Shown here in pieces: positions 7,139-41,215 of a DNA stretch of 64,000 nucleotides (position 1 is the first letter of the stretch; each line of letters opens with the position of its first letter). The position numbers and the translations under genes are program-made. Source of the DNA: an uncultured virus (IMG/VR IMGVR_UViG_3300025276_000002) (lineage: Duplodnaviria > Heunggongvirae > Uroviricota > Caudoviricetes); IMG/VR virus record IMGVR_UViG_3300025276_000002. The stretch is one strand, 5' to 3'. The notes beneath the pieces are model-generated. The model was not told where the DNA came from. It was given only the letters and a program-made list of their open reading frames with translations, and ran no database searches.

Positions 7139-10100
7139 TTATATCGGGTTCAAGAACCCACCGACTTCATTCTCCTGCTGTATAGACTGCAGAGAGACAC
7201 CCTGAGCTATCTGTTCAACCCTGTTCTCATAATCCCTTAGCTTAGACTCAATAAGACCTACAGTCCGTTCTGAAGCGTCCCCTTGGATATTGATAACTGG
7301 AGAAGATGTAAATGAACTACCACCTCCTTGTCTGATAGGTAATCCAGCATTCATTCTTTCAAGAGTATCCTTATATCTAGCTGTGGCAGGGGCTGTCATT
7401 ACTGACTCACCTCTTGCAATATTTGCCTTGATACTATCTGATCTGCCTGTACCTTCCCCCTGAATATCTACACCACCGAAAGCAAAAGATGGCTCTTTCA
7501 AAGATCTTGCCTGACCTACCAACTGCGTACCTGTTGCAAACGCTTCTGCTATTATAGGTATGTTGGCTGGCCAACCTACTGCTGATGCCTTAGCTATACT
7601 TTGAACGAGTGCCGTTGATGTTTCAAAGATTGCAGCAGCTTTAGAGATCTTAGCCAACTTCTTACTGTTACCTGCAACCGCTGATAACATCTTAGCGCCA
7701 CTAGATATGACACCTGCCACCTCCCCTTGTCTTGATAATGCTTGAGCTTCTGCTGTGGCTTCCCAAGCAGCTATCTTAGCATTGGTTATCTTATCTTCAT
7801 AATCTACATTTAGCTGCCTCTTTCTTTCCAGATATTGCTCTTCAGTTATAAGATCTTCTTCCTGCCACAACTCTTTAAGTTCTTTTTCCTGAACCCGCAA
7901 TTCCTCCTGTAGAAGATTTAACTCTGTTGCTGCCTGAATAGCTCCTTCTTCATCTACAAAGAAACCTAATGGAATGAGTATTTCATTCTTTTCATCCATG
8001 AAAGTGGCTTTAAGATTTTCTTTTAGCTTATCCACCATTTCTTGAGAAATACCATTCTCAACATCTACAAGATTGTCTAGCTTAATAAGTTCATCAGGAA
8101 GTGCCGATGTTAGTTGGTTTAGTGTACCTTCTATCTGAGCACCACCTGTAGATGAGAAACTAATACCTGCATCTGCTAAGTCCTGATACTTTTGTAGTTC
8201 AGATCTTTTAGCAGCTATTGCCTCTGCGTTCTTAAGTAATTGCATATACTCTTGACTATCTATAGCTACTGCATTTGTCTTGATAGTGTTAAGAGCTTTT
8301 AAACGCTCTTCTTCATAAATGTATTCAGAAGATGTCTTACTAACACCTGTTGACAAAAGTTTTTGTAATTCTATTTGCCTATTAAGTGTAGCTACGTTTG
8401 CACTATTTGCATCACTAGCTTTTAATGCATTAAGTACAGCTTGGTTACGTTGTGCTTTTAGTAATTCTACATTCTCTTGATACAAAGCCTTAGTCTGTGC
8501 TTCAGTAACTTCTCCGCTTATCCTTTTTATATCATTAGCCGTCTTGATACTAGCTGATAATTGAATAAAAGCCTCTGAGTTCTTAAGTATACCACTTGTC
8601 GTTGCCTTGTATAATTCTACTTCTCTTTCAAGACCATCTTGCTGCGCTTGTAGGGATTTGGTCTTTTGAAGTACAGTGTTGTAAGTTACACGTTGCCTAG
8701 TAAGATCAGATGTTGCTAGGATGTTCTCATAAATAATCTTTAGCTCTTTTTCTTGAACTGTAAGATTCTCTTTCCCACCTGCAATAACATTCTTAATCTT
8801 AGAGAGAGACTCTTCTGATACAGCAAGTTCTCTTTTCGTAGCCTCTGTTAATGCATCTTGTCCAGCTTTAACTGAAAGGTAGTAGTCACTTGCTGTATCC
8901 CCTGCCTGCAAGAAGGCTGCTGTAAGTTGCTTCTGCTTTTCAAGTTCTTGTTCAGAAGTTTCTCTTGCTTTCTGCTGTGCATCTGTCAGGAGAGATACAT
9001 AGTTAGAATACTCACCATTTTGCTGTTTCTGTTTTTCTACCAATTCTTCTTTAAGTCTTAATAGCGAAATAGATTCTTTCTGCTCATCTGTATAAAATCT
9101 GTCAGAAAGTTCTCTAGCGGAGATTATACCGTCACCTATTCCAAACCAAGATGCTTGCATCCTAAGGAAGCCCTCAACAGCAGTCCCTGCCTCTAGCGAT
9201 AGCCTTTTCACCTCATCTGATAGGCTAAGTTCATCACTTGACTTACTCAATTCTTCGAGACGCTGATCTATTAGGGCTATTTGCTTGGCTGTGTCTTCTG
9301 ATGTCTTGGTAAGTCCCTGCATCTCATTTCTTTGCTTTCTCAGCATGGTTTCAACATCTGTCTCTGATAGTTGTTGTGCGAGCTCTAGCCATTGAGACCA
9401 GTTTTGAACAACTGTCCTGAGTGGGCCACTAGCCCCTCTTCCTAGTGTTTCGAACAACTCTGTCCATTGCTGATTGACCGTATCAAGATCTCCAGCTAAG
9501 GTGTCTGCTTGCGCCCTAGCTATATCTCCATACCTTTCATTAATTCTGCTTAGGATTATCTCTTGAGCTTCATAAAGTCTACCTTCTACTTGTAAACTCT
9601 TTATCCGATCCTTATCACCTTTTTCAAGATCAATCCTCAACTCTTTTAGAGACTCTAGTTTAGAGATGGGATTATCCAGCACTCTGCCAAGCTGATTAAC
9701 AACTTCTTTAGTGGATTTACCAGCCACAATAGCAATATCTTGAGATTTCCTTATGACATCTTCAAACACAGCAGATGAGACATTTGTAAAAGACAGGAGA
9801 GATTGAATACTAGTTCTTACATTATCTGTACTGTCTAAAGTACCTCTTGCTATGTTTCTGGCCATCATGTCTAATTGGGTAGCTGAGTACCCTGCTGCAT
9901 TACCTGTTGCCTCTATTTGAGCTTCAAGTGTTTTAAATGCAACCTCAGACTCTTTAGCAGTTGTTATGCCTCTGGAAAGTTGTTGGGTAAACAATGCAAC
10001 ACCTATACCAAGGCCTGTTAGGGCTATTGCCCCTCCTATGCCGCCTGTAGACTTAAGAATAGTACTTAAGGTTGTAAGTCGTGAGGCTATACCGCCTAAT

Positions 10101-20650: not shown

Positions 20651-21883
20651 CTTTTTTCTTTGTTACTGAGTTTAGTTTATCCCTCAGTTGTAATAGGTGT
20701 GTTTCTTAATTTTATTAACTTGTTTACGTATTTCTTACCTTTTCCGTCTATCTTGTTTTGGAACTCTTCATCAGAAAGTGCTTTCAATCTAAGTATAAGA
20801 TCTCGTTCTGATTGTTCCTTTGTTTTAGGAGGAGGCTTTACGTATGGCTTTTTCTTCTCTGGAGGATTTATAAGATTGTTGACATAAGTTATGAAAGAAG
20901 GTTTCTTATCTTTAAGATAGTTTTCAAGCTCTACCTCATCCATGTTTCTGATCTTATCTTGAAACACTTGGTTAGACGTATTACCCTTCATTTTCTCAGA
21001 TATCTTTTTTCTTCTCTCAGGCTTTCTGGCTGCTTCCCTTAAATTGATCAAAGCTTCTTCTGTGACAGGTTTTGATATCTTTAATCTCCAAGCTTCTTTT
21101 TGCTCTGGTGTCAGTTTCCTCATAGGACTCTTGTCACCTGAGATCCTTCCTACATTTCCATATTGAGAATTGTTCTTACCTCTTCTGTATTTTACACAGA
21201 AAGCTTCATATTCCTCTTCAGTAGAAAAACGATCTCTAAATGATATTCCGTAACTGCCATTATTTTCGCCCCTGATCTTCTCAGCTACCCGCTTTCTGAC
21301 TTCTGGGTGTGCAGCTCTTTCTACCGCTCTAGATTGCGCCATTACAAAGTTGTTAATAAAACCATGCTTCTTAGCATGTTCATCAGGAGTAAGTAACTCT
21401 AAGTTCTCTGGATGATTATTACTGTGGTCATGATCTTTATGATGTATATGCATTCCTGATATTTCATCATCAGAAGCTCCTGTCCATAGTTGATAAATCC
21501 TTCTATAAGATTTACTACCCTTTTGGTACAATTCCATTGCTCTTTCTTTGTCCATAATTTATGCTCCTATTACATCTTTATGTTTCCATAAAGGTCAGAC
21601 TATATCTTCATCTTCACCATTACGTGTTAAGAGTCTCCCGTTTCGATTCCACTTGGAACCTACACACCTTAAAGGTGTTAGTCGTTGAGCCCATCTCTTC
21701 TTGAGAGACTTTGCTGCATTGGTTATCCAATCTTTAAAGGTTTTCACTATACCCACTTCCGTTACAAAATGGTGAACACAGTATATTACTATCTGTGAAC
21801 AGTACTTTAAAGCTCTAAGGATGTTCCTGCATTAGAGAGATTACAATTATCACTATTTCTAATGATACCAGACCGATAACATA
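20651..21883 (-). ncRNA. Group I intron in terL (1233 nt)
   Basis: P1: exon CCAGAU pairs with intron GUCUGG, with U.G at the splice site. Core elements AAUGCAGGAA, AAUGCAGC, CUCAACGACUA and AAGAUAUAGUCU. Terminal G at 20651; P10 AUCG/CGAU. Confidence 0.92.
20677..21555 (-). CDS. Intron-encoded HNH homing endonuclease with NUMOD3-like repeats
   Basis: HIHHKDHDHSNNHPENLELL...H; lies inside the terL intron, 3' of the catalytic core. Confidence 0.88.
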   Translation of the reverse strand: MDKERAMELYQKGSKSYRRIYQLWTGASDDEISGMHIHHKDHDHSNNHPENLELLTPDEHAKKHGFINNFVMAQSRAVERAAHPEVRKRVAEKIRGENNGSYGISFRDRFSTEEEYEAFCVKYRRGKNNSQYGNVGRISGDKSPMRKLTPEQKEAWRLKISKPVTEEALINLREAARKPERRKKISEKMKGNTSNQVFQDKIRNMDEVELENYLKDKKPSFITYVNNLINPPEKKKPYVKPPPKTKEQSERDLILRLKALSDEEFQNKIDGKGKKYVNKLIKLRNTPITTEG

Positions 21884-23248
21884 ATCTGGCGATTTCTTAT
21901 GCACCTGTGGATTGTACTCACACATCTGTGCTTCAAGGTCTCGATGAATACCTACATGGTATATCTTACCTCGCTCGTATAGTAAACCAATCGGTTCTGC
22001 ACGAGCACGTTTACCTTTGGATGCAAATACTTTCTTAACAACTACCATTGGGTCGATGTTGAAAATAGCTGCTGGTATAAAGTCACCACCATTGTTGGTT
22101 TCTATAATTACAGCATCTGCATTGTATTCATAATATAGTCTTACGATGTCTCTATATATCTCAGATATCTTACCTCTTCGAGAGGCATCTTTGAATACAT
22201 AACCTTTGTCATTCTTCCTACCTACAACTGTGATACCTGTCTCATCTGAGTTAATATCTTCAACCACGTTAGGATCGACAGCTACAACTATAGAGTCCAT
22301 AGACTTTACTAGTTTTAGATAGCGTTCATCATATTTATCAGGATCAAGTCCTACATCATCAAGATTAATCCTTTCGATGGATTCATATGAGAAAATGGCA
22401 CCAAGATTTTCTTCTAGGATCATTCCAAGTATTTCTTGGTTATAAAGGCTTGTGCCTTCTCCAAGCTTAACCTCATCTATGAAAGACTGTGGCAATGAAT
22501 AATTATCAAAGGTGGTTCCTGTGGTAAATCTTATGTTGGAATTTTCTTTTTTGGAGTCTTTGTAGAGATCTTTCAAACCCTTTATAGGGCGAGGGGAGGT
22601 GGTTATTACATATCGAGGATACCTGCCAGCACGTAGTGCCTTCTTAGCATTGTCCCATATATCATCATCTCCTGCTGATCTCTTGAAGAACGCCCACTCA
22701 TCTGACCAAACAAGATGAAAGTTTTCCCCACGAACACGGTCACCATTCTCTGCTGAGAAGACTTTAGCTGTGGCACCATTGGGCCAAGTTAAAGTACCAT
22801 CACTTTTATTGTACTTGGGTTTAAATCCTATAGGGGAAAGTCCTAATATACCTGATGAGCCTTGAATCATGTTTTGCTTGGACATGGCAAACGTTGGGCC
22901 TAAGAGGCCTATACGTGCATTTGGTGTCTGTATAGCAAATTCTATAACGGCAGCCGCTCCACAATAACTCTTTCCGAAACCGCGACCTGTACACCATATA
23001 GCCCCTACCCAAGACTTATCTTCGTAAGGAGGTGTCAGTTGATCGTCTCTGAGAAAAATTCTTATATCATTTGAGATGTATCTTAGAACTTCTGCATACC
23101 TGTTTCCAAACATCGACTCAAGATCTTTCAAGAATGCTGACCTTTTACTTTCAGATTGCTCCATGATAAGTTTTTCTCTTATCCATCTTGCCGTCTTTAA
23201 ACTATAAGGGTGTTTAAATGATCCAGAGGAGAGTGCATTATTAGACAT
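21884..23248 (-). CDS. terL: Terminase large subunit, exon 1
   Basis: Walker A GRGFGKS, Walker B VWSDE, TTSP, nuclease motifs VAVDP and IETNNGG; ends KKSPD at the 5' splice site. Confidence 0.93.
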
Positions 23249-23912
23249 CTTCCCTCTCCTCTAATGGTCTACACATCCAGCCTCTATGTTGAGTCGCTAT
23301 TCCTATCTTAACATTGTGCATTGATCCTGCTAACAGATTATTTTCTCTGGAGAACTTTGCTAAATTGTAAATCTCTTTCCAGTCACCATCTTCCACCCTT
23401 TTTACTAGAAACCTTTTCGCAATAGCTTCTTCTGTATTTTCTTGGGCAGTTGCCCATCTGCAATTATCGGGTTCGTAATTCCCTTTGTCTCCGTTTCTGC
23501 AAAGAGAGGTGACACCTTCTTCATATCCATTCTCTAGCGACCATTTCTTGAAGGAAAGATAACCTTTACCATCTCCCTCTAGCCACTCTGGAAACACGTT
23601 ACAATCATCTCCTATCTCTTTTCTTTTCCTAGATCTTTGTTTCATGTTTGTATATTGCTTGTACAGAGGCGTTCGAGATTCACTGTGTTTGATTATCTTA
23701 TCCCACCTTGCACATCCACAGGAGGTGGCCTTACCTAATCTGACATCTTTTAGATCCGCTTCTTTCTCTCCGCTACCGCAAGAGCAAGACACTAAAACCC
23801 TTCTCACTCTTCTGTATCTGACCTTGCCTCTGTATTGAGGCTCGATCTCTTTAAGTATTGTTAACTTTCCGAAAACTTCTCCAACAGGGCAAGGTTTGTC
23901 TCTTGATTTCAT
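23241..23912 (-). CDS. Free-standing HNH-type homing endonuclease
   Basis: FGKLTI, CSCG, SCGC, MKQR and GNYEPDNCRWAT motifs; sits between terS and terL. Confidence 0.8.
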   Translation of the reverse strand: MKSRDKPCPVGEVFGKLTILKEIEPQYRGKVRYRRVRRVLVSCSCGSGEKEADLKDVRLGKATSCGCARWDKIIKHSESRTPLYKQYTNMKQRSRKRKEIGDDCNVFPEWLEGDGKGYLSFKKWSLENGYEEGVTSLCRNGDKGNYEPDNCRWATAQENTEEAIAKRFLVKRVEDGDWKEIYNLAKFSRENNLLAGSMHNVKIGIATQHRGWMCRPLEEREDV

Positions 23913-23925
23913 AAGACCTCCTTGA

Positions 23926-24495
23926 TTATCTTTTAGGAGAAGATTCTTCTGCCTTCACCATTAACTTAGCAAACTCCTCCTCCGCACTACCAACCACATC
24001 AGATGTTTCATCTGTCTTAGCAACAGGCTTAGAGTTCTCAAACTGCATTAGCTCCCTACGAGCATCCTGCTTCTCTTTCAATTTGGTATTAGGATCTGCT
24101 AATATATCCATAGCAAGCATAGAAGGTGTAACTATTTCATCTGCTGTAAGCCCTCTTAGAATAGCATGTTGCTTAATCATCTTGAGATATTGAGCACTTA
24201 CAGAGTCACGGAATCGTTCATCTATTTCGGCCACTAGTGCAGCCTCTTTTTTCTTCTTAGAACGATCAGATGTGTATTCACCATCTATATCATCAGCCTC
24301 TTGCCTTAAACGTTCAGCCTCTTCTTGAAGTCTCTGTGCTTCATCACGTAGCTTATCTGCTTCAGCTATTCTTTGATTACGTATTTCATTGTTACGCTTT
24401 CTAGCTGCAACACCTTTCTTCCTAATAGCATCTGCTTGTTCAGGGTCCATACCTGCAAAGCCAGCACCGCTTTTAGCTTTAGTAGCTTTAGCCAT
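23926..24495 (-). CDS. terS: Probable terminase small subunit
   Basis: 189-aa helical protein, first sizeable gene of the late operon, upstream of terL; AAGGAGG RBS. Confidence 0.6.
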   Translation of the reverse strand: MAKATKAKSGAGFAGMDPEQADAIRKKGVAARKRNNEIRNQRIAEADKLRDEAQRLQEEAERLRQEADDIDGEYTSDRSKKKKEAALVAEIDERFRDSVSAQYLKMIKQHAILRGLTADEIVTPSMLAMDILADPNTKLKEKQDARRELMQFENSKPVAKTDETSDVVGSAEEEFAKLMVKAEESSPKR

Positions 24496-24524
24496 AGTTC
24501 CTCCTTGTAGGTTATGGTTGTTAT

Positions 24525-24571
24525 AAAAAAAGCCTTTACGATTTGAGCTTCATATGATAGGCTTGAAAGGC
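24525..24571 (-). terminator. Terminator-like hairpin just upstream of terS
   Basis: GCCTTT...AAAGGC followed by TTTTTTT on the minus strand. Confidence 0.55.
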
Positions 24572-24580
24572 ATATTTGTC

Positions 24581-24729
24581 AGCAGTTGGCTGTTATCAAT
24601 ACTTGTAATCAAGCGTAAGAGGACAGGACTGCTTAAAATTTATTGGTTGTGTGATAATAAAAACAACTCTTATCGATATTCACGGGCTTGTGGGTCATCC
24701 TACGCCGATGGTTATCACACACCAATAAA
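24581..24729 (-). ncRNA. Two structured RNA modules of unknown family
   Basis: An 18-bp stem with one bulge closes 24639-24729; AGCAGT/ACTGCT closes an imperfect hairpin at 24581-24633. Confidence 0.5.
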
Positions 24730-24805
24730 CTCTATCCTAGATAATCCAATCCCTGATCATCTCCAACCAATGGTCCATAATCATCATTTAATTCCACTAT
24801 TATAT

Positions 24806-24925
24806 TTATGGACCTGTAAACTCTCCATTTTTAAGTTTAAAATCTACAAGACAGAGTAGCCTCTCAATTTCAAGAATACATTCAAAACCTTCTTCTAAGA
24901 GTTTATCCATACCTTTAACTTTCAT
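24806..24925 (-). CDS. Possible 39-aa small protein
   Basis: MKVKGMDKLLEEGFECILEIERLLCLVDFKLKNGEFTGP*, preceded by AGGGG. Confidence 0.4.
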   Translation of the reverse strand: MKVKGMDKLLEEGFECILEIERLLCLVDFKLKNGEFTGP

Positions 24926-25034
24926 ATTAAACCCCTATAAATCCATTGTCAATAAAGTCTTCCGTAGAGATAGTCAAACTTCCCTCTTTAATCACATGCA
25001 TAATATTCTCCTTATTAAATTCTAATTAAAAATA

Positions 25035-25109
25035 ACTCAGCAGCAGTCTCACGACTCAAGCTAAGTCCATCAGGTGTCGTGATCCTGACTACGCCACATA
25101 ACCCTGTGG
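25035..25109 (-). ncRNA. Three-hairpin structured module ending in a U-rich tract
   Basis: CCACA/UGUGG, UCAGG/CCUGA and ACUUAGC/GCUGAGU (inner AGUC-GUGA-GACU), followed by UAUUUUU. Confidence 0.45.
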
Positions 25110-25131
25110 AGGGAGATGTCCTCTAAGAGTG

Positions 25132-25668
25132 TCATGTGATCAATAAAGTACCTTTATACTCCCATCTAAAACCTCTATACCTGAGTCTTCCTTTAATATT
25201 ATTGCAGGATTGTGATATTCTGCCACTAGATAGACCTAGCTTTTGAGCTTGAAAACTAGATCCGAAGAGCATTGTTTCACCCTCTTTTTTAGCAATGAGG
25301 TTGAAGGTATAGCAATTATCACCCAAACGGTACTTACTTCCTACCATCCTCCCTTTAGTCTCAGGATAGTTCATGTTCTCTCTGTGAGTACCAACCTTTA
25401 TATGACAAGGATTTATGCAAGCTCTGTTATGACACTCGTGCATCATTTCAAACTTAGTCTGATCAAAATCTCCCTTGTGCAGTATATATGAAACTTTATG
25501 AGCTCCTAAACTTCTACCACCAATTTTAAACACACCATATCCACAAGAATCTTTTTTACCAGTAAAATTCCAGCACCCGTTCTTGTCATATTCAACCTTA
25601 CTCAAAAGCCTTTCAACAGGACAACTTCTGACCTTCCTCGTTAAAAGCCAATTTAAATCAAAACTCAT
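25132..25668 (-). CDS. HNH endonuclease (His-Cys type)
   Basis: CWNFTG...GYG...AHKVSY...HECHNRACINPCH...GTHREN. Confidence 0.88.
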   Translation of the reverse strand: MSFDLNWLLTRKVRSCPVERLLSKVEYDKNGCWNFTGKKDSCGYGVFKIGGRSLGAHKVSYILHKGDFDQTKFEMMHECHNRACINPCHIKVGTHRENMNYPETKGRMVGSKYRLGDNCYTFNLIAKKEGETMLFGSSFQAQKLGLSSGRISQSCNNIKGRLRYRGFRWEYKGTLLIT

Positions 25669-25671
25669 ATT

Positions 25672-25756
25672 AACCTCACAGTGTCCAGCTCTAGATGATA
25701 AAGTGACAAGACATAGAGCTGTGATTGTGTCCTTTCGGGAGCTACCCTAGTCACTT
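25672..25756 (-). promoter_or_regulatory. Structured leader of the HNH gene
   Basis: AAGUGAC/GUCACUU closing stem with an inner GGG-UAGCU-CCC hairpin; loop UCACAGCUCUA is complementary to the segment next to the RBS. Confidence 0.6.
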
Positions 25757-25769
25757 ATTAAGTTAATAA

Positions 25770-26510
25770 TAAAAAATCCAACCACCACTTTCGATCAGAC
25801 TTGCTCTGATACAGCATAAGCTGCTGGGTAGCACTCTCTCAGTTGGTACGTTGCTACGAAATATCCCTAATTACACATTACCGCACATGGGCTCGACCTT
25901 GTTACAGGTTTGCTGAGGTACTTTTACGCATGGGCTGCCTCATTATGGTAATTATTTAACAATCGCAAATCTCAGGTGAATAAATCACTCGTGAGAAGCC
26001 GTAAGTCGTATCTGGTACTAAGTACCTTTTTTGTTAAATAGTTGCAGTCTTTCCTGCTGTCATCGGTTTACTATGCATTACTGTAAAGTCCTCCCTCTGT
26101 AAAGGGCTTGGCCTACAATGGCTCCTCTGGCGCACCCAACTCGAAACGCTCGCTATAAATAAACTATTAAAACTTACTTATAGCAAATGTCTTTAAGGGC
26201 CTTTAAAAAAGCAACACCAACCCTTGTTATTATTATTAGAGGTTGGTGTTGAAAGATTCGGTAACTCGGCATAAAGCAACAAGCACCTAAAAGTGAATCT
26301 CCATATTAACTTGAAGTATCACCTACTCACCAATGAAACATCTGTGTGTTCTTGTTATGAGCTATCCATGAAATAGCATCAGATCGTCCATTGGGAAGTA
26401 TTAATATATAACCTAAAGAGTCTACGTGAAATGCGAATAGTCTCTCATATTCGATTCAATTAATTGATTAAATACTTAGGTTTGATAGTTTAAATAGTAA
26501 TCATCCTATC
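25770..26510 (-). ncRNA. Array of abutting structured RNA modules of unknown family
   Basis: No ORF >=60 aa. Successive inverted repeats at 25778-25846, 25877-25952, 25953-26040, 26152-26184, 26212-26251, 26254-26300, 26324-26400 and 26410-26482. Confidence 0.65.
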
Positions 26511-26530
26511 ATATAGGTGCGGTTTAAGGA
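26508..26530 (-). promoter_or_regulatory. Putative phage RNAP promoter (late, leftward)
   Basis: TCCTTAAACCGCACCTATATGAT is 22/23 identical to 33445-33467 in the opposite orientation; T7-promoter-like length with TATA-like 3' end. Confidence 0.75.
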
Positions 26531-26557
26531 ATATGTATATAAAACAAAAGTTTAGCT

Positions 26558-26586
26558 ATTTTAAAGATCTTGACTATTTTAATCAA
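26558..26586 (-). promoter_or_regulatory. Putative sigma70 promoter (leftward)
   Basis: TTGATT-17 nt-TAAAAT, overlapping the palindrome GATCTTGA-N9-TCAAGATC. Confidence 0.55.
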
Positions 26587-26651
26587 GATCCCAGTTGAAA
26601 ATTGGTATGTAAGCTGCAAGGTTTTAGATTAGATGACCCTATTATTTTTAC

Positions 26652-27128
26652 TTAAGTGTCAGCACCCTTCTCCCAGATATCATACCAATAATCGCCACCT
26701 TGTGGTGTTCCGAACCACCAAAATGCGTCTATAAGTCCTTCCTGCCAATTAAACGGGGGAGAGTTTGATGCAGGAGTATACCCCCTGTAAGCCCTTGTAA
26801 GCTCTTCTAATGCAGCCACCTTACCAATCACACTACTTACATCTTTAAACAGTTTTGACTCGGTTATATTGAGCTTATTACTGTGTTTACTCATATCCTC
26901 TTTCCTCCAAGAGTCTTTCTTTATTTCATGCCAGCTTTCTACATACTCTGGCGGATTTAAGCCTAAACAGTGAGTGTCTAGCTTTTCTGTCTTACCACAC
27001 TTTTTACAAACCCGTATTCTGTCTTTTAATGTTAAGCCCATTTCCTCATGTTTGTAATCTAGGTATTCTCTTTCTTGCACAATGTCCCAACTGTGAAAGT
27101 GCAGTCCCTCTCTGAATGATAAGCTCAT
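26652..27128 (-). CDS. Hypothetical protein (CxxC N-terminal part, Trp-rich C-terminal part)
   Basis: 158-aa ORF overlapping the stop of the upstream gene (ATGA). Confidence 0.65.
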   Translation of the reverse strand: MSLSFREGLHFHSWDIVQEREYLDYKHEEMGLTLKDRIRVCKKCGKTEKLDTHCLGLNPPEYVESWHEIKKDSWRKEDMSKHSNKLNITESKLFKDVSSVIGKVAALEELTRAYRGYTPASNSPPFNWQEGLIDAFWWFGTPQGGDYWYDIWEKGADT

Positions 27129-27789: not shown

Positions 27790-28437
27790 CTAGTTTTCTT
27801 CCTTATCTTTACATCTAAGTTTCCAAGCAGGTGTTATGTTATATTTGTTCTTTACAAAATACGGATACCTGTATAAGTATTTCTCACTATCTACAGATTT
27901 AGAAACGTTCCACATACAAGGTATGAAATCATAATCAAGATCTTCTAATTTTTTAAATTCAAAAGAAAAAGGATTTTCTTCAAAACACCTTGCCTTGTCT
28001 AAAAACACCTTGTTATTTAACTTAGGCAGTATTTTTAGAATCAAGTAGTTCTCCAAATTATCCATCTCATCCTTATTCCTGCACTGGCAGATAAGTATTT
28101 CATCGAAATCTTTGTCAAGGTGCTTTTTAAGCCTTGCTGACACATTTATAGATTGGCCTATATAGACCTCCTTACCATTTTTCATAAGTTTGTAAACGTG
28201 ATAAAGTTTAGGACTTACCTTTTTAAAAATAGATTCCATAAGACTTAATCTATTAGTTTTATAATTCTCTAAGAGGTGGATTACAAGTAATTCATGATAG
28301 ATGTATTTCAAATCTATATCAGAATCTTCAAGGTAGTCCGCTAACACATCTAAACAATCCTCTGACTTCGCCTTTTTAGTATCCTTCTCTTCTAGGTAAT
28401 AAAGACAGTGCTCTATTATTTCATCTTCTATTCTCAT
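27790..28437 (-). CDS. GIY-YIG nuclease-family protein
   Basis: HVYKL...VYIGQSINVSARLKKH...LENYLI...PKLN. Confidence 0.75.
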   Translation of the reverse strand: MRIEDEIIEHCLYYLEEKDTKKAKSEDCLDVLADYLEDSDIDLKYIYHELLVIHLLENYKTNRLSLMESIFKKVSPKLYHVYKLMKNGKEVYIGQSINVSARLKKHLDKDFDEILICQCRNKDEMDNLENYLILKILPKLNNKVFLDKARCFEENPFSFEFKKLEDLDYDFIPCMWNVSKSVDSEKYLYRYPYFVKNKYNITPAWKLRCKDKEEN

Positions 28438-30608: not shown

Positions 30609-33251
30609 TTATTTAAAGCAGTGTACACTACTTAACATTTCATTTAAATCATACTCTCCATACACTATACCAAACTGCTTAGGTGATAGCAACAGGTTTC
30701 TTTGATCTTCATCAAGCTGTGATTGGAACTCTTCATAAAGCTTCTGAAGGATATCTTCCTCAAATATCTTGATAAACTCCTCTCGAATAATACGGTTAAA
30801 TCTTCGAGTGTAACAACAGTGAGCAGCAAGAGAGTCATGCACCATTAATAAGTGATCTATCTTCTCAGATTCGCATCTCAAAGCAACAGCTTGGACCAGA
30901 CAACTGTCAAGACTATGCACTATATCTGGAGCTACAGATGACTTCATTTTACCTACATCAAGAACCTTTTGCAACACACCGTTTTTATCCTCAGCCATTT
31001 TAGGTAGCTTGACAGTGAAGCGTCTTGCATCACCCATGAAGTCAGCATGTACTAAAATGTTCTCCATCTTGTACTTAGCCATTGTAGCCTTAAAGCCCAT
31101 AGGTGTAGTCCACTTCACAGGTTTACCACAATTACCCAATACATCAGCAACATGTACAAACCATTCCATCACCTGACCAGCTCCAGTAATTACCTGATTG
31201 ATTGAATCAAAGATCATATTACCCATGTAACTAGCAGCTTGACCTGTCCCTTCACATCTGAAGTTATCCTCCCACTGCTTCTCAACAATGAACTCAGAAC
31301 AGTGTTGGATATTACCATATCGAGTACCTGAATAGAATTTAACCATAACTGGCTTCTTAACAAGGTTGCGAATAATAAAGCTTAATCTTACCTGCTCTAA
31401 ACGGTCAAAGTCTAGATAAGTATTTAAGTATAATTCTTCCAGTGTGTCAAACTCTTTTGAACGGCTAATAATCATCTCTTGGGTTCTTGATGAAAGTATA
31501 TCATCTTCTTGCCCATTTAAGACGTTCTGTAGGCGCTCTAAGACGTTAACTCGACCTAACCAATCCTGAGCCATAGGGTCTTCTTTAAAAACGCTTAGAA
31601 GGTTGTCTAGAACCTTTCCTGCCACAGCCATATAGAGATCTTGAGCATCTGGTAATGCACATAAGTTTGTATGTCTAGCTCCGACAATATCTCTAGTCAT
31701 TGCAGAAAGGATCTGAGCACCTGAACAACTCGCATCATTAGGATCAGGCAAGTGAGATACAAACTTGTAATCACCATTTTTTGCAAAGTATTCTTTCCAT
31801 GCAGCCCACTCAAAAGCAGCAGCTAAGAATTGTAAAGGCTTATCAGCAGACATCCACTTACACTTTTCAAGAGGATTAACAGAGCATTCAATAATCCAAT
31901 CATTGTTCTCATTGATCCATTTTATTGAATCTTGTTCAGTCAGCTTATCTGTCTTGATACCATTGCCTGAGTCGTTACCCCAGTGATTACAAAGGGTCTT
32001 GATAATACCATACTCACCACCCTTGCCATCACCATCATGATCAAGTGGTAAACCTACAGAGAACTCCAAAACAGCCTTCTGAAAATCAGCACCTTGAAGA
32101 TTAATACCTGACATAGCAGAAGGATATACACGACTACGACCATCTGTGCTTAAAGGCCAATATAGCTCATCTTCTTCCTTAACCATCTCAGTAATCTGTA
32201 TGGTAGCTTCTAAGGCACGATCTAAAGACTTCTTACCTGCAACCTTCTTTACATATGCTTCTTTCCTGTCAACCCATTTGAAGAACTCTTTACGCTTTTC
32301 ATTAGAGGCTTCATCTTGGAAAGCAAGAACCATTGCCTTCTTCTTCTTGCCTGTCTTCTTATCAACCTTTTCACCTTCTACCTTCTCCCAGATATGTTCA
32401 TCAAGTTCCTTATCAATTGGACAAGGTTCATTGAAAGACTTGGGTAGGTTATTAAGAAATAACTTACCCATCTCATCAGGACGAGAAGCTTGTAGCGTCT
32501 TGTAGAGTCCAAAGATCCTTTGATTGATCCTGTGAGGAGTCTTTTGCATATGGTTAATAGATGCAAACAAACGATCATCCTCTGGAAGCTCATGCTTATG
32601 CTTGCCCTTAACAAAAGGATTAGTTGCTTTACCAACTTCTGATAAATATCCACCACCTATCATGTCTTTCCAATCATCAGGTTCACAAACCATTGGCATC
32701 TTCTTAGCTGAAACAGTTGCAAATAGTTCTTCATTGTCATTTACGAGAGTATTCCAATTATCAGTTGCAGAGACTTTCCACTCTGTCACGGACTTACTAA
32801 TACGCTCTAGTTCTGTACGGAACAACTTAAGAGGCTTTAGACCTTCTAATGTTAAATCTAATAACATAATACCTGCTGACACAGAATCAACTACAATCTT
32901 TTTATCCTTAGAGAAAGTATCTTCTGATCTCCCTGCTTTAGAAAGAAGACTGTTACCGATACTAGTTGCAATACGTGTCACAGGTAATGAAGCTTCCATT
33001 GATAAACTAGACACAAGAGCTTTAATACCTATGAATGCAACTTCTTTATGTTCCAACTCCTTAGTAAGTTTAAAGAATGATGCTCTCTTACGTTGAACAG
33101 TGTCATGCTTGTTTTTGATAGCTGCCTCAACAAGATTACACATGTCAACAAGAATTGTAGCATCTCGGTTATTATCCAAGTTCTCTAGAAAACCTTCGAT
33201 AGTAGTTTCATTGAAGTACATCTTTTCTAGTTCTAACTGCTTTTCTCTCAT
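30609..33251 (-). CDS. T7-like single-subunit RNA polymerase
   Basis: PMVCEP.DW..GGY, DGRSRVY, QGAD, motif A DASCSGAQ, motif B RNLVKKPVMVKFYS, PDIVHSLDS and motif C VHDS. Confidence 0.95.
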   Translation of the reverse strand: MREKQLELEKMYFNETTIEGFLENLDNNRDATILVDMCNLVEAAIKNKHDTVQRKRASFFKLTKELEHKEVAFIGIKALVSSLSMEASLPVTRIATSIGNSLLSKAGRSEDTFSKDKKIVVDSVSAGIMLLDLTLEGLKPLKLFRTELERISKSVTEWKVSATDNWNTLVNDNEELFATVSAKKMPMVCEPDDWKDMIGGGYLSEVGKATNPFVKGKHKHELPEDDRLFASINHMQKTPHRINQRIFGLYKTLQASRPDEMGKLFLNNLPKSFNEPCPIDKELDEHIWEKVEGEKVDKKTGKKKKAMVLAFQDEASNEKRKEFFKWVDRKEAYVKKVAGKKSLDRALEATIQITEMVKEEDELYWPLSTDGRSRVYPSAMSGINLQGADFQKAVLEFSVGLPLDHDGDGKGGEYGIIKTLCNHWGNDSGNGIKTDKLTEQDSIKWINENNDWIIECSVNPLEKCKWMSADKPLQFLAAAFEWAAWKEYFAKNGDYKFVSHLPDPNDASCSGAQILSAMTRDIVGARHTNLCALPDAQDLYMAVAGKVLDNLLSVFKEDPMAQDWLGRVNVLERLQNVLNGQEDDILSSRTQEMIISRSKEFDTLEELYLNTYLDFDRLEQVRLSFIIRNLVKKPVMVKFYSGTRYGNIQHCSEFIVEKQWEDNFRCEGTGQAASYMGNMIFDSINQVITGAGQVMEWFVHVADVLGNCGKPVKWTTPMGFKATMAKYKMENILVHADFMGDARRFTVKLPKMAEDKNGVLQKVLDVGKMKSSVAPDIVHSLDSCLVQAVALRCESEKIDHLLMVHDSLAAHCCYTRRFNRIIREEFIKIFEEDILQKLYEEFQSQLDEDQRNLLLSPKQFGIVYGEYDLNEMLSSVHCFK

Positions 33252-40400: not shown

Positions 40401-41215
40401 AAATAATATTGTGGTGCTCAGTGGTGACATTGAGTAGAAAACCCTATTAATTGACTGGGAATCTTAGCTAGGCAAACTTCACATGTCGAGATGATATCAG
40501 GAGAGAGTTAGTAGAAGACAATCAGCAGCTATAGGAGAAATTATAATGAAAGAATATAAAGGTTACAGAGTACTAGAAGATGGTACAGTTTTAAATAGAG
40601 ATGGAAGCATTAAGAGGTGGTCGGAAAATCAAAAAGGTTATCTTATATCTGCAATTTCTGTGGAAGGAAAGAGGATAGCGATATCACATCATAGAATGGT
40701 TGCGGCAGCTTTTTATGGAAAATGTCCAAAGAAGCATGAGGTGAACCATAAGGATAACGATAGGAAAAACAACCACCCTTCTAATTTAGAATATGTAACA
40801 AAATCGAAGAACAATCAGCAATCTTGGGACTCAGGAAATAGATGTGCCACAGGTATAAACAATGCGAATTGTAAAGTATCAGAAAAAGATGTGCATATGG
40901 TTTGTAAACAAATAGAGAATGATTTCAAACTAAACGTTTCAGAGTTATCGAGAAAAACAGGAATATCACGAACCACTATTACTAAGATCAAATTCAAAGA
41001 GCAGTGGTCACATATCTCTAAGCATTATAATTTCTAACTATAGTCCACAGACTATCGAAAGGCAGCAGAATAAGCTGAACTGAGTAGAGTAGATTACAAG
41101 TGTAGTCGAAACATAGGGCATCTCTAAGAGATGGTGATATAGTCGCGTCCCATCAGAAATGGTGGCAGATCTTAAAAGATCGGGCATGGAATAACGAACC
41201 ATGTTGAAGGTAACG
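40401..41215 (+). ncRNA. Group I intron in the DNA polymerase gene (815 nt)
   Basis: P1: UACCAU pairs with GUGGUG (U.G at the splice site). Core elements AAUUGACUGGGAA, AAUCAGCAG, CACAGACUA and GAUAUAGUC. Terminal G at 41215; splicing restores motif C H-DE. Confidence 0.92.
40546..41037 (+). CDS. Intron-encoded HNH homing endonuclease
   Basis: HRMVAAAF...VNHKDNDRKNNHPSNLEYVT..N; bracketed by the stem GCTATAG/CTATAGT. Confidence 0.9.
   Translation: MKEYKGYRVLEDGTVLNRDGSIKRWSENQKGYLISAISVEGKRIAISHHRMVAAAFYGKCPKKHEVNHKDNDRKNNHPSNLEYVTKSKNNQQSWDSGNRCATGINNANCKVSEKDVHMVCKQIENDFKLNVSELSRKTGISRTTITKIKFKEQWSHISKHYNF

Follow-up and report, generated by a model that had tools for sequence, protein, structure and literature searches.

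In a stretch of 64,000 nucleotides from an uncultured Caudoviricetes virus (IMG/VR record IMGVR_UViG_3300025276_000002; this whole stretch is referred to as the window), the minus strand carries a gap of 2,156 nt between a 158-aa open reading frame (ORF) and a 189-aa terS-like gene. The gap holds an HNH_3 ORF, a 39-aa ORF, a 24-aa ORF and about ten modules closed by their own stems (Table 1). We tentatively read this stretch as a hypervariable island of exchangeable small structured-RNA genes, an RNA counterpart of a tRNA island or "moron" zone. A conserved noncoding leader of ca. 430 nt (unit A) borders it on one side and the terS-like gene on the other, in a marine siphophage with a T7-type RNA polymerase (RNAP) of its own. 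An original prediction, made from the DNA letters without naming a strand, had described the same stretch as a train of abutting structured RNA modules in a late leader that has one HNH gene and a few tiny ORFs. The paucity of genes was borne out, with one HNH gene and two tiny ORFs in the gap. The train of discrete modules also stood, since at least three of them (M2, M3 and the core of M4) are conserved RNA elements absent from Rfam 15. The idea that they form a single system did not. Nor did processing of a polycistronic precursor gain support, RNA contigs bridging M2-M3 and M3-M5, and roles in packaging or antitermination were not supported either.

Gain and loss of modules among related phages

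The window was compared with three related phage contigs, L044, L091 and L093, which share its flanking genes at 77-97% nucleotide identity. Each module is a discrete cassette, gained or lost in relatives independently of the others, and the joints fall on module borders. In L044 and L093, a different hairpin element of ca. 110 nt takes the place of positions 25118-26205 (M2 to M5 and the HNH gene). L091 has M3-M5 (97.7% identity) but neither M2 nor the HNH gene nor the intron of the terL gene. Joints at module borders were also found in contigs of two DNA metagenomes (25117/26206, 26031/26206 and 25773/25953). The M2 cassette is missing from L091 and from one X4 contig (joint 26031/26206), and M4 and M5, which form one cassette, are cleanly missing from one X4 contig (25774-25952). 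The spacerless abutment at 25952/25953 that had been pointed out originally is real and coincides with a cassette border, where a metagenome contig joins 25773 to 25953. The modules assort independently from one relative to the next, and so each behaves as a cassette of its own and not as a part of one machine.

The slot occupied by M7 has a constant extended flanking stem and variable content. In L044 it holds tRNA-Lys(UUU) within the same flanking stem, in L091 an RNA resembling a tRNA (canonical T arm and acceptor stem) that neither ARAGORN nor Rfam calls, and in L093 yet another insert. According to the alignment, the neighboring hairpin cassette M7b is found in the window and L091 and is missing in L044 and L093. 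The tRNA-like RNA (L091 3240-3350) has a perfect T arm, an acceptor stem, an encoded CCA, a long variable arm and an odd anticodon arm. The hairpin cassette that sits in relatives where the window has the block from M2 to the HNH gene has the closing stem GGCACACC/GGTGTGTC and lies at L044 4215-4300, L093 760-850 and L091 2925-2965.

Three observations could suggest one large catalytic RNA, i.e., a group I or group II intron or a giant ribozyme built around the HNH gene: structured RNA surrounds the HNH ORF, the terL gene of the same genome contains a bona fide group I intron that has its own HNH_3 ORF, and some relatives have or lack a 1,088-nt block as a whole. We consider this explanation effectively excluded. 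No group I or group II match was obtained in positions 24300-26900 at E ≤ 10, and the same scan retrieved the terL intron with 74.6 bits; the sub-blocks M2 and M4+M5 are lost separately; other loci share single short modules only, with no common architecture; and, since the flanks of the HNH gene are noncoding, there are no exons to join.

The M2 module in unrelated phages

M2 is a new RNA family, supported by covariation and common to unrelated phages. Its 48-nt core is 94% identical in jumbo phages N1M2, Sureiya and Yubaba, and M2 also occurs in jumbo-phage tRNA islands. The exact core was found at eight IMG/VR loci beyond the window's own contig and in phage N1M2. Seven of the eight loci belong to enterobacterial lambdoid prophages, where M2 forms an insertion of ca. 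190 nt; upstream of it lie a 229-aa ORF in the Q position and the small RNA IsrJ (RF01393, scanned in L071 and L075), and downstream lies a second terminator. An E. coli prophage with an M2-free leader displays the order Q-leader-holin. The M2 copy of Dasania phycosphaerae is preceded by a promoter-like sequence, TTTACA-17-TATAAT, and its surroundings are prophage-like (CII, integrases, primase).

A covariance model, R1, was trained on the lambdoid-prophage and Dasania copies only, with the window excluded. It matched the window over its full length (model positions 1-114) with 78.2 bits and E 4e-20, and it matched the jumbo-phage copies, including those of N1M2 and L076, with E about 1e-16. 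On the model-fitted alignment, 95% of cells are paired and 7 of the 17 pairs show double-sided changes, a result that none of 500 shuffles matched; four helices are retained across four lineages. No M2 was found in the genomes of phages 9A, KASIA and H101, and a search of 185,579 species genomes with the core returned three loci, two of them unrelated coding DNA.

Protein coding was considered as the main constraint on M2 and rejected, as the hairpin arms covary together with frame-breaking indels. A frame on the RNA strand, in which three core differences are silent or conservative, has no start codon and variable stop sites. On the opposite strand, Dasania has a 61-aa ORF with a ribosome-binding site, but the window has no ORF of 30 aa or more there.

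Several features of individual M2 loci may be mentioned. The Dasania ORF antisense to M2 (L083/L095, around 7590-7770) combines a strong ribosome-binding site with an N-terminal half that is hydrophobic, and it could conceivably form a type I toxin/antisense pair with M2 there; in the window this ORF is not intact. In some enterobacterial lambdoid late leaders the M2 insertion carries its own terminator (L071 1145-1335; L080 2445-2560), and in L075 two tRNA genes follow M2. In Klebsiella phage N1M2 (L002 1408-1549), the annotated start of an HNH_3 gene falls within the M2 match; since the HNH domain starts ca. 50 residues later, the annotated N-terminus is probably wrong.

M3 and M4

M3, a three-way junction, is likewise a covariation-supported RNA family that unrelated phages have in common. 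A homologue with 79% identity is present in Pseudoalteromonas phage H101, where a small gene lies upstream and a terminator and a promoter lie downstream. In three sequences from two lineages, all 66 cells are paired and 6 of the 22 pairs are compensated. A scan of IMG/VR with an M3 16-mer gave 39 loci, 37 of unrelated sequence, and a gapped M3 pattern gave seven, five of them unrelated; no further M3 copies were retrieved.

The 32-nt core of M4 is 87-89% identical to a motif of T4-like phages. When the whole stretch was searched by blastn, 349 phage records were matched, nearly all T4-like; 25 IMG/VR loci yielded 17 distinct M4 cores, and the core varies at the same positions in the marine and T4-like lineages. 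The stability of M4 (Table 1) by itself gives no support. In one annotated T4-like record, the motif fills the gap between a lysozyme-adjacent endonuclease gene and a 195-aa P-loop gene (PHROG 1488); we take these genes to be denV and vs.8. No homologue of the P-loop gene was found in the window (best tblastn E 5.1). In 18 long-form T4-like sequences, the outer helix by the start codon covaries by our reading by eye (CCG/CGG, CAC/GTG, CGC/GCG, CCTG/CAGG). Duplex energies of cognate and non-cognate M4 closing helices gave no clear signal, the pair of the window being weaker than non-cognate ones. The T4-like motif itself (L046-L070; e.g., L001 1496-1600) is ca. 110 nt long with an invariant inner loop of 24 nt. 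It has no entry in Rfam 15 and is a candidate for a new riboswitch or cis-regulatory RNA; our literature search found no published description of a T4 motif at this spot.

The abiF-like module M8

The original prediction had listed defence decoys among possible roles of the modules, and one concrete lead of this kind was obtained: M8 matches the abiF RNA motif in a phage that has no Abi_2 or DUF3800 gene. The match to Rfam RF03085 (26.1 bits, E 0.09 in a 2.6-kb search; 25.9 bits for M8 of L044) is below the gathering score of 37 bits and appears nevertheless to be specific. M8 has the 6-bp outer stem and the inner 3-bp stem of the motif and the unpaired letters CAAGCCU.UCA ... GCUCAAAUCG, with all conserved unpaired letters but one present; the outer stem consists of complementary AU-rich pairs. 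It shares CAAGCCTA and GCTCAAATCGT with the closest bacterial variants, L101 and L102. The T run (24525-24531) and the distance to the following ATG correspond to the placement typical of abiF motifs.

In 151 sampled gammaproteobacterial genomes, the abiF family was found in eight, in five of them above threshold, and among eight ORFs scanned downstream of these bacterial matches, five are Abi_2 and one is DUF3800. We built a model, R3, from ten bacterial abiF motifs and searched 107 kb with it. M8 was the top match (E 0.028, R3 E-values being rough), and all five matches at E ≤ 10 lie in this slot (in the window, L044, L093 and L091, and as a second motif of L044). The gene downstream of M8 has no Pfam match, so an adjacent toxin gene is missing. 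No Abi_2 or DUF3800 was found among 61 ORFs of the window or in G153, a near-identical contig of 75 kb. By its sequence, M8 is thus an orphan abiF-class motif.

The second motif of L044 (4919-4966) is GC-rich, full-length and abiF-like and follows M8 directly; the resulting tandem pair resembles those found upstream of bacterial toxin genes.

Unit A

Unit A is 97-99% identical in four related phages, and the adjoining upstream coding sequence is only about 80% identical. In Colwellia phage 9A, it matches the gap that precedes the terS-like gene (64% over 268 nt, E 5e-13), with some hairpins retained despite different sequence. The unit ends with a terminator hairpin (arms 26212-26222 and 26241-26251; z = -4.95). 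Since in 9A the terminator of the homologue abuts the terS-like start codon, the island can be delimited as the DNA between the unit A terminator and the terS-like gene. The box TTCCTTAAACCGCACCTATATGATAGGA occurs once in the window at up to three mismatches, and no repeated promoter box was found in the window; the label "late" for the promoters is presumptive. In 9A (L110 4448-4685), the unit A homologue is preceded by three tandem boxes of ca. 27 nt (AATCCTTAACTTGGGGTATTATGATAG) that resemble TTCCTTAAACCGCACCTATATGATAGGA; these boxes may serve the phage RNAP as promoters or be repeats bound by terminase. A nearly invariant 430-nt leader in front of packaging genes, common with 9A, poses a separate problem in phages with their own RNAP.

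The arrangement seen in 9A, the RNAP gene of the phage and four terminator-like hairpins with T runs in series would also agree with a purely cis-acting late leader. Its hairpins and terminators would be attenuators, antitermination signals or RNase III-type sites that meter transcription by the T7-type RNAP into the packaging and structural operon, with no function in trans. The T4-like M4 motif, a 5' leader whose outer helix adjoins the start codon, would fit as well. We regard this explanation as unlikely, because close relatives with the same downstream genes lack M2, M4+M5 or the whole of 25118-26205, and the cassettes are therefore dispensable for late expression. Moreover, M2 stands free behind its own promoter-like sequence in the prophage-like region of Dasania and is an insertion in lambdoid leaders, M3 of H101 has a gene before it and a terminator and a promoter behind it, and a slot that holds tRNA-Lys in L044 is not regulatory.

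Folding strength, known RNAs and RNA coverage

The helices named in the original prediction were recovered. The closing stem of M3 extends over 25950-25962 and 26031-26043 (complementarity 92%), the 18-bp stem over 24634-24657 and 24712-24734 in two pieces (14 nt with 86% and 10 nt with 100%) and the bulged rod over 26324-26344 and 26380-26400 (76%); the ATTACC/GGTAAT pair is present at 25877/25947. The strand that folds is the minus strand, as judged by G-U pairs in the 25774-25802 terminator (5 of its 11 pairs) and in helices of M2 and M6. Intrinsic terminators follow unit A, M5, M6 and M8.

Folding energies of 11 minus-strand segments were compared with those of shuffled sequences; six coding controls span z from +2.0 to -3.0. 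The expectation of better-than-random folding held for four segments (the unit A terminator, M3, M7 and M7b; z ≤ -3.6) and failed for seven, with z of -1.7 to -2.0 for the body of unit A, M2 and M6. Thermodynamics by itself is thus only partly convincing, and the comparative evidence is stronger.

Rfam was scanned at the gathering threshold over the window and at E ≤ 10 over 24300-26900. At the gathering threshold the region gave no match; at E ≤ 10, only chance-level matches (SNORD95, RAGATH-12 and CPEB3) were obtained besides abiF. As had been stated originally, no module looks like a tRNA: ARAGORN found none in the window, and RF00005 gave no match in the region at E ≤ 10. Rfam scans of the T4-like, lambdoid, jumbo-phage, 9A, KASIA, L091, L093 and Dasania loci returned only tRNA, IsrJ and group I introns. 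ToxI-like tandem direct repeats (ca. 34-50 nt) were not detected by TRF, which reported only a 9-nt repeat in two copies within coding sequence (24474-24491).

Marine metatranscriptome contigs from two studies cover 25777-26146 and 26250-26510, i.e., unit A and M2-M5 only, with 36 nt of low identity in the HNH gene. Parts of the stretch with no RNA cover were not counted as evidence.

One may ask whether the stretch is mostly inert hitch-hiking DNA, composed of debris of homing co-conversion, decayed tRNAs and recombination linkers, with unit A as a site that acts at the DNA level (pac/cos or promoter). The genome is rich in homing endonucleases, mosaic joints are abundant, the M7 slot holds tRNA, tRNA-like and non-tRNA inserts within the same flanks, several modules fold no better than shuffles and unit A is conserved with little covariation. 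Yet the double-sided changes that leave the M2 helices intact, the retention of all 22 pairs in M3 and variation of the M4 core at the same positions in marine and T4-like phages speak against this. In addition, M6 and M8 hardly change among four phages that differ by 6-23% in their coding DNA, the G-U pairs are strand-specific, and the RNA contigs favor modules over the HNH gene. We therefore hold inert DNA to be rather improbable.

Proposed function and evidence against it

If the stretch is an island of exchangeable RNA genes, transcription from unit A would mostly halt at the successive terminators and so yield short stable RNAs in abundance, which would bind proteins and thereby act in trans. 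M8 would imitate the RNA antitoxins of abortive-infection toxins of the AbiF/DUF3800 type, host tRNA lost to cleavage would be replaced from the tRNA slot, and M2, M3 and M4 would be decoys or regulators for their partners. Exchange of cassettes would be driven by the HNH endonuclease and by recombination at the stems. From this analysis, trans-acting, protein-titrating roles are plausible, with M8 as a putative abiF-class antitoxin mimic being the most concrete case. A bolder version, which we think doubtful, makes the island a dedicated anti-defence RNA battery driven by unit A. It would combine orphan protein-binding motifs (mimics of abiF/DUF3800-class antitoxins and the new M2, M3 and M4 families) with replacement tRNAs, and its cassettes would be swapped to match the abortive-infection or RNA-regulated toxins of the hosts.

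A number of observations weigh against the island of trans-acting RNA genes. Four serial terminators before essential late genes also fit a purely cis-regulatory leader. The segments M4, M5, M8 and the stretch preceding the HNH gene have z of only -0.1 to -1.1 (M5, -0.1). Of the 74 pairs in the predicted unit A structure, 28 are broken and 9 compensated, and M6 is conserved with little covariation; unit A and M6 may therefore act as DNA or cis signals. M8 scores below the Rfam threshold, the R3 alignment to it leaves out the outer stem, and in a larger Rfam search at E ≤ 1 abiF was not listed for L091 or L093. Both M2 and M3 are rare: among the 151 gammaproteobacterial genomes, M2 was found in one, which is a training genome, and M3 in none. 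The RNA contigs span module borders, bridging M2-M3 and M3-M5, in keeping with a cis leader, and do not point to separate small RNAs; since they give no strand, ends or level and DNA carry-over is possible, the RNA cover is only a hint.

Should an exchangeable island of non-tRNA structured RNAs exist, it would widen the picture of phage counter-defence, which is known mostly from proteins and in which RNA decoys rest on very few cases, with pseudo-ToxI as the classic one. It would also offer a place to seek more antitoxin-like RNAs. Since the three new families occur in T4-like phages, lambdoid late leaders and jumbo-phage tRNA islands, they are directly testable in laboratory strains.

Genome setting and feature coordinates

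Every gene from about 18.8 to 33 kb is carried by the minus strand, in the 5' to 3' order RNAP, small genes, the 158-aa ORF, the gap, the 189-aa gene, an HNH-like ORF, terL and portal. Pfam and PHROG searches with the 189-aa protein gave no match; in both Colwellia phage 9A (54% identity) and Shewanella phage KASIA a homologue stands directly before terL, and it is reasonable to call the gene terS-like from this position. PADLOC reported nothing for the flanking proteins. The product of the HNH_3 gene within the island scored 22.3 bits against Pfam HNH_3 (E 1e-4), below the cut-off of 24.8 bits, and L044 conserves the 39-aa product. In IMG/VR, 19-25-mers from M6 and from unit A were found in this phage group only.

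Homing-endonuclease-type genes are unusually numerous in the genome (four HNH or HNH-like and one GIY-YIG). The relative L091 lacks the whole 1.24-kb terL insert, and the terL gene of KASIA has two RF00028 matches, of 59.8 bits (over the threshold) and 41.7 bits (below it).

Table 1. Coordinates of island modules and of genes discussed in the text (window positions; z, folding score relative to shuffled sequences).
Feature	Position	Strand	Remarks
T7-type single-subunit RNAP	30609-33251	-	PF00940, E 9e-65
GIY-YIG endonuclease ORF	27790-28437	-	homing-endonuclease type; one of several small genes
158-aa ORF	26652-27128	-	5' border of the gap
Gene-poor gap	24496-26651	-	2,156 nt, between the 158-aa and 189-aa ORFs
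Unit A	26205-26640	-	conserved noncoding leader, ca. 430 nt; strong intrinsic terminator at its end
TTCCTTAAACCGCACCTATATGATAGGA box	26503-26530	-	28 nt, single copy; possible promoter or protein-binding site
M2	26039-26155	-	new structured-RNA family; cassette ca. 26041-26205 with 5' AT-rich hairpin
M3	25953-26040	-	88-nt three-way junction; z = -3.7
M4	25877-25952	-	core similar to T4-like leader motif, 25878-25909; z = -0.5
M5	25770-25876	-	G-U-rich intrinsic terminator; hairpin 25774-25802, T run 25771-25776
HNH_3 homing endonuclease gene	25132-25668	-	free-standing; PHROG endonuclease, E 6e-25
M6	25020-25117	-	lineage-specific conserved hairpin set, T run at end; z = -1.7
24-aa gene	24927-25001	-	Shine-Dalgarno site
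39-aa gene	24806-24925	-	Shine-Dalgarno site
M7	24639-24729	-	18-bp-stem module in tRNA slot; z = -3.7
M7b	24576-24638	-	hairpin cassette; z = -3.6
M8	24525-24575	-	putative abiF-class motif and T run; 29 nt before terS-like start codon
189-aa terS-like gene	23926-24495	-	downstream border of the island
HNH-like ORF	23241-23912	-	between terS-like gene and terL
Group I intron	21576-21895	-	splits terL; RF00028, 74.6 bits
HNH_3 ORF	20677-21555	-	inside terL insert
HNH_3 ORF	40546-41037		after DNA polymerase gene

Comparison with known systems

Phage small-RNA and tRNA clusters are already known; the tRNA cluster of T4 contains two extra stable RNAs and segB. The island resembles such clusters in its tandem abutting RNA genes with closing stems, in the homing endonuclease inside it and in gain and loss between relatives. 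The likeness extends to the real tRNA-Lys in the L044 slot and to the occurrence of M2 among tRNAs in N1M2 and L075. It differs in that the window has no tRNA, the folds are non-tRNA, terminators lie between cassettes and the site is the leader of a packaging operon.

With lambdoid late leaders (Q, a short terminated leader RNA and IsrJ) the island shares its position between a regulatory region and late genes, the serial terminators and M2 itself, which is inserted there. Unlike in those leaders, no Q homologue was identified, the phage has its own single-subunit RNAP and the cassettes are dispensable in relatives.

RNA antitoxin mimicry is known as well. Pseudo-ToxI of phage PhiTE is reported to overcome abortive infection by ToxIN through mimicry of the antitoxin RNA (PMC3475682). 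Both M8 and the additional motif of L044 would likewise be phage-borne antitoxin-type RNAs with no toxin gene; unlike here, ToxI is an array of tandem 36-nt repeats, and M8 is a putative mimic that scores below the Rfam threshold. The abiF motif RNA of C. difficile, RCd22, binds and neutralizes the AbiF toxin (bioRxiv 10.1101/2025.04.15.648962). M8 has the same hairpin plan, the conserved loop letters, the T run and the site before a start codon, and L044 shows the tandem arrangement of RCd22; in contrast to abiF loci, the outer stem of M8 is AU-rich and the downstream gene is terS-like rather than a toxin gene. In cyanophage S-CREM1, an abiF match is annotated beside wcaG and manA RNAs (PMC9964418). 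There, too, several structured RNA motifs lie within about 800 nt, whereas the neighbors of M8 belong to other, unnamed families.

A published catalogue (PMC10690425) of over 10,000 structured-RNA candidates from viruses and phages includes comparative-genomics motifs of the same kind in IMG/VR phages, some of them upstream of terminase genes. The core strings of M2, M3 and M4 are absent from the six of its supplement files that were searched (three further files were outside the search). Against this background, the new elements are three RNA families not in Rfam 15, for which a prior listing in that catalogue is possible, a predicted orphan abiF-class motif in a packaging-leader setting, and the cassette behavior of non-tRNA folds in the leader of a packaging operon.

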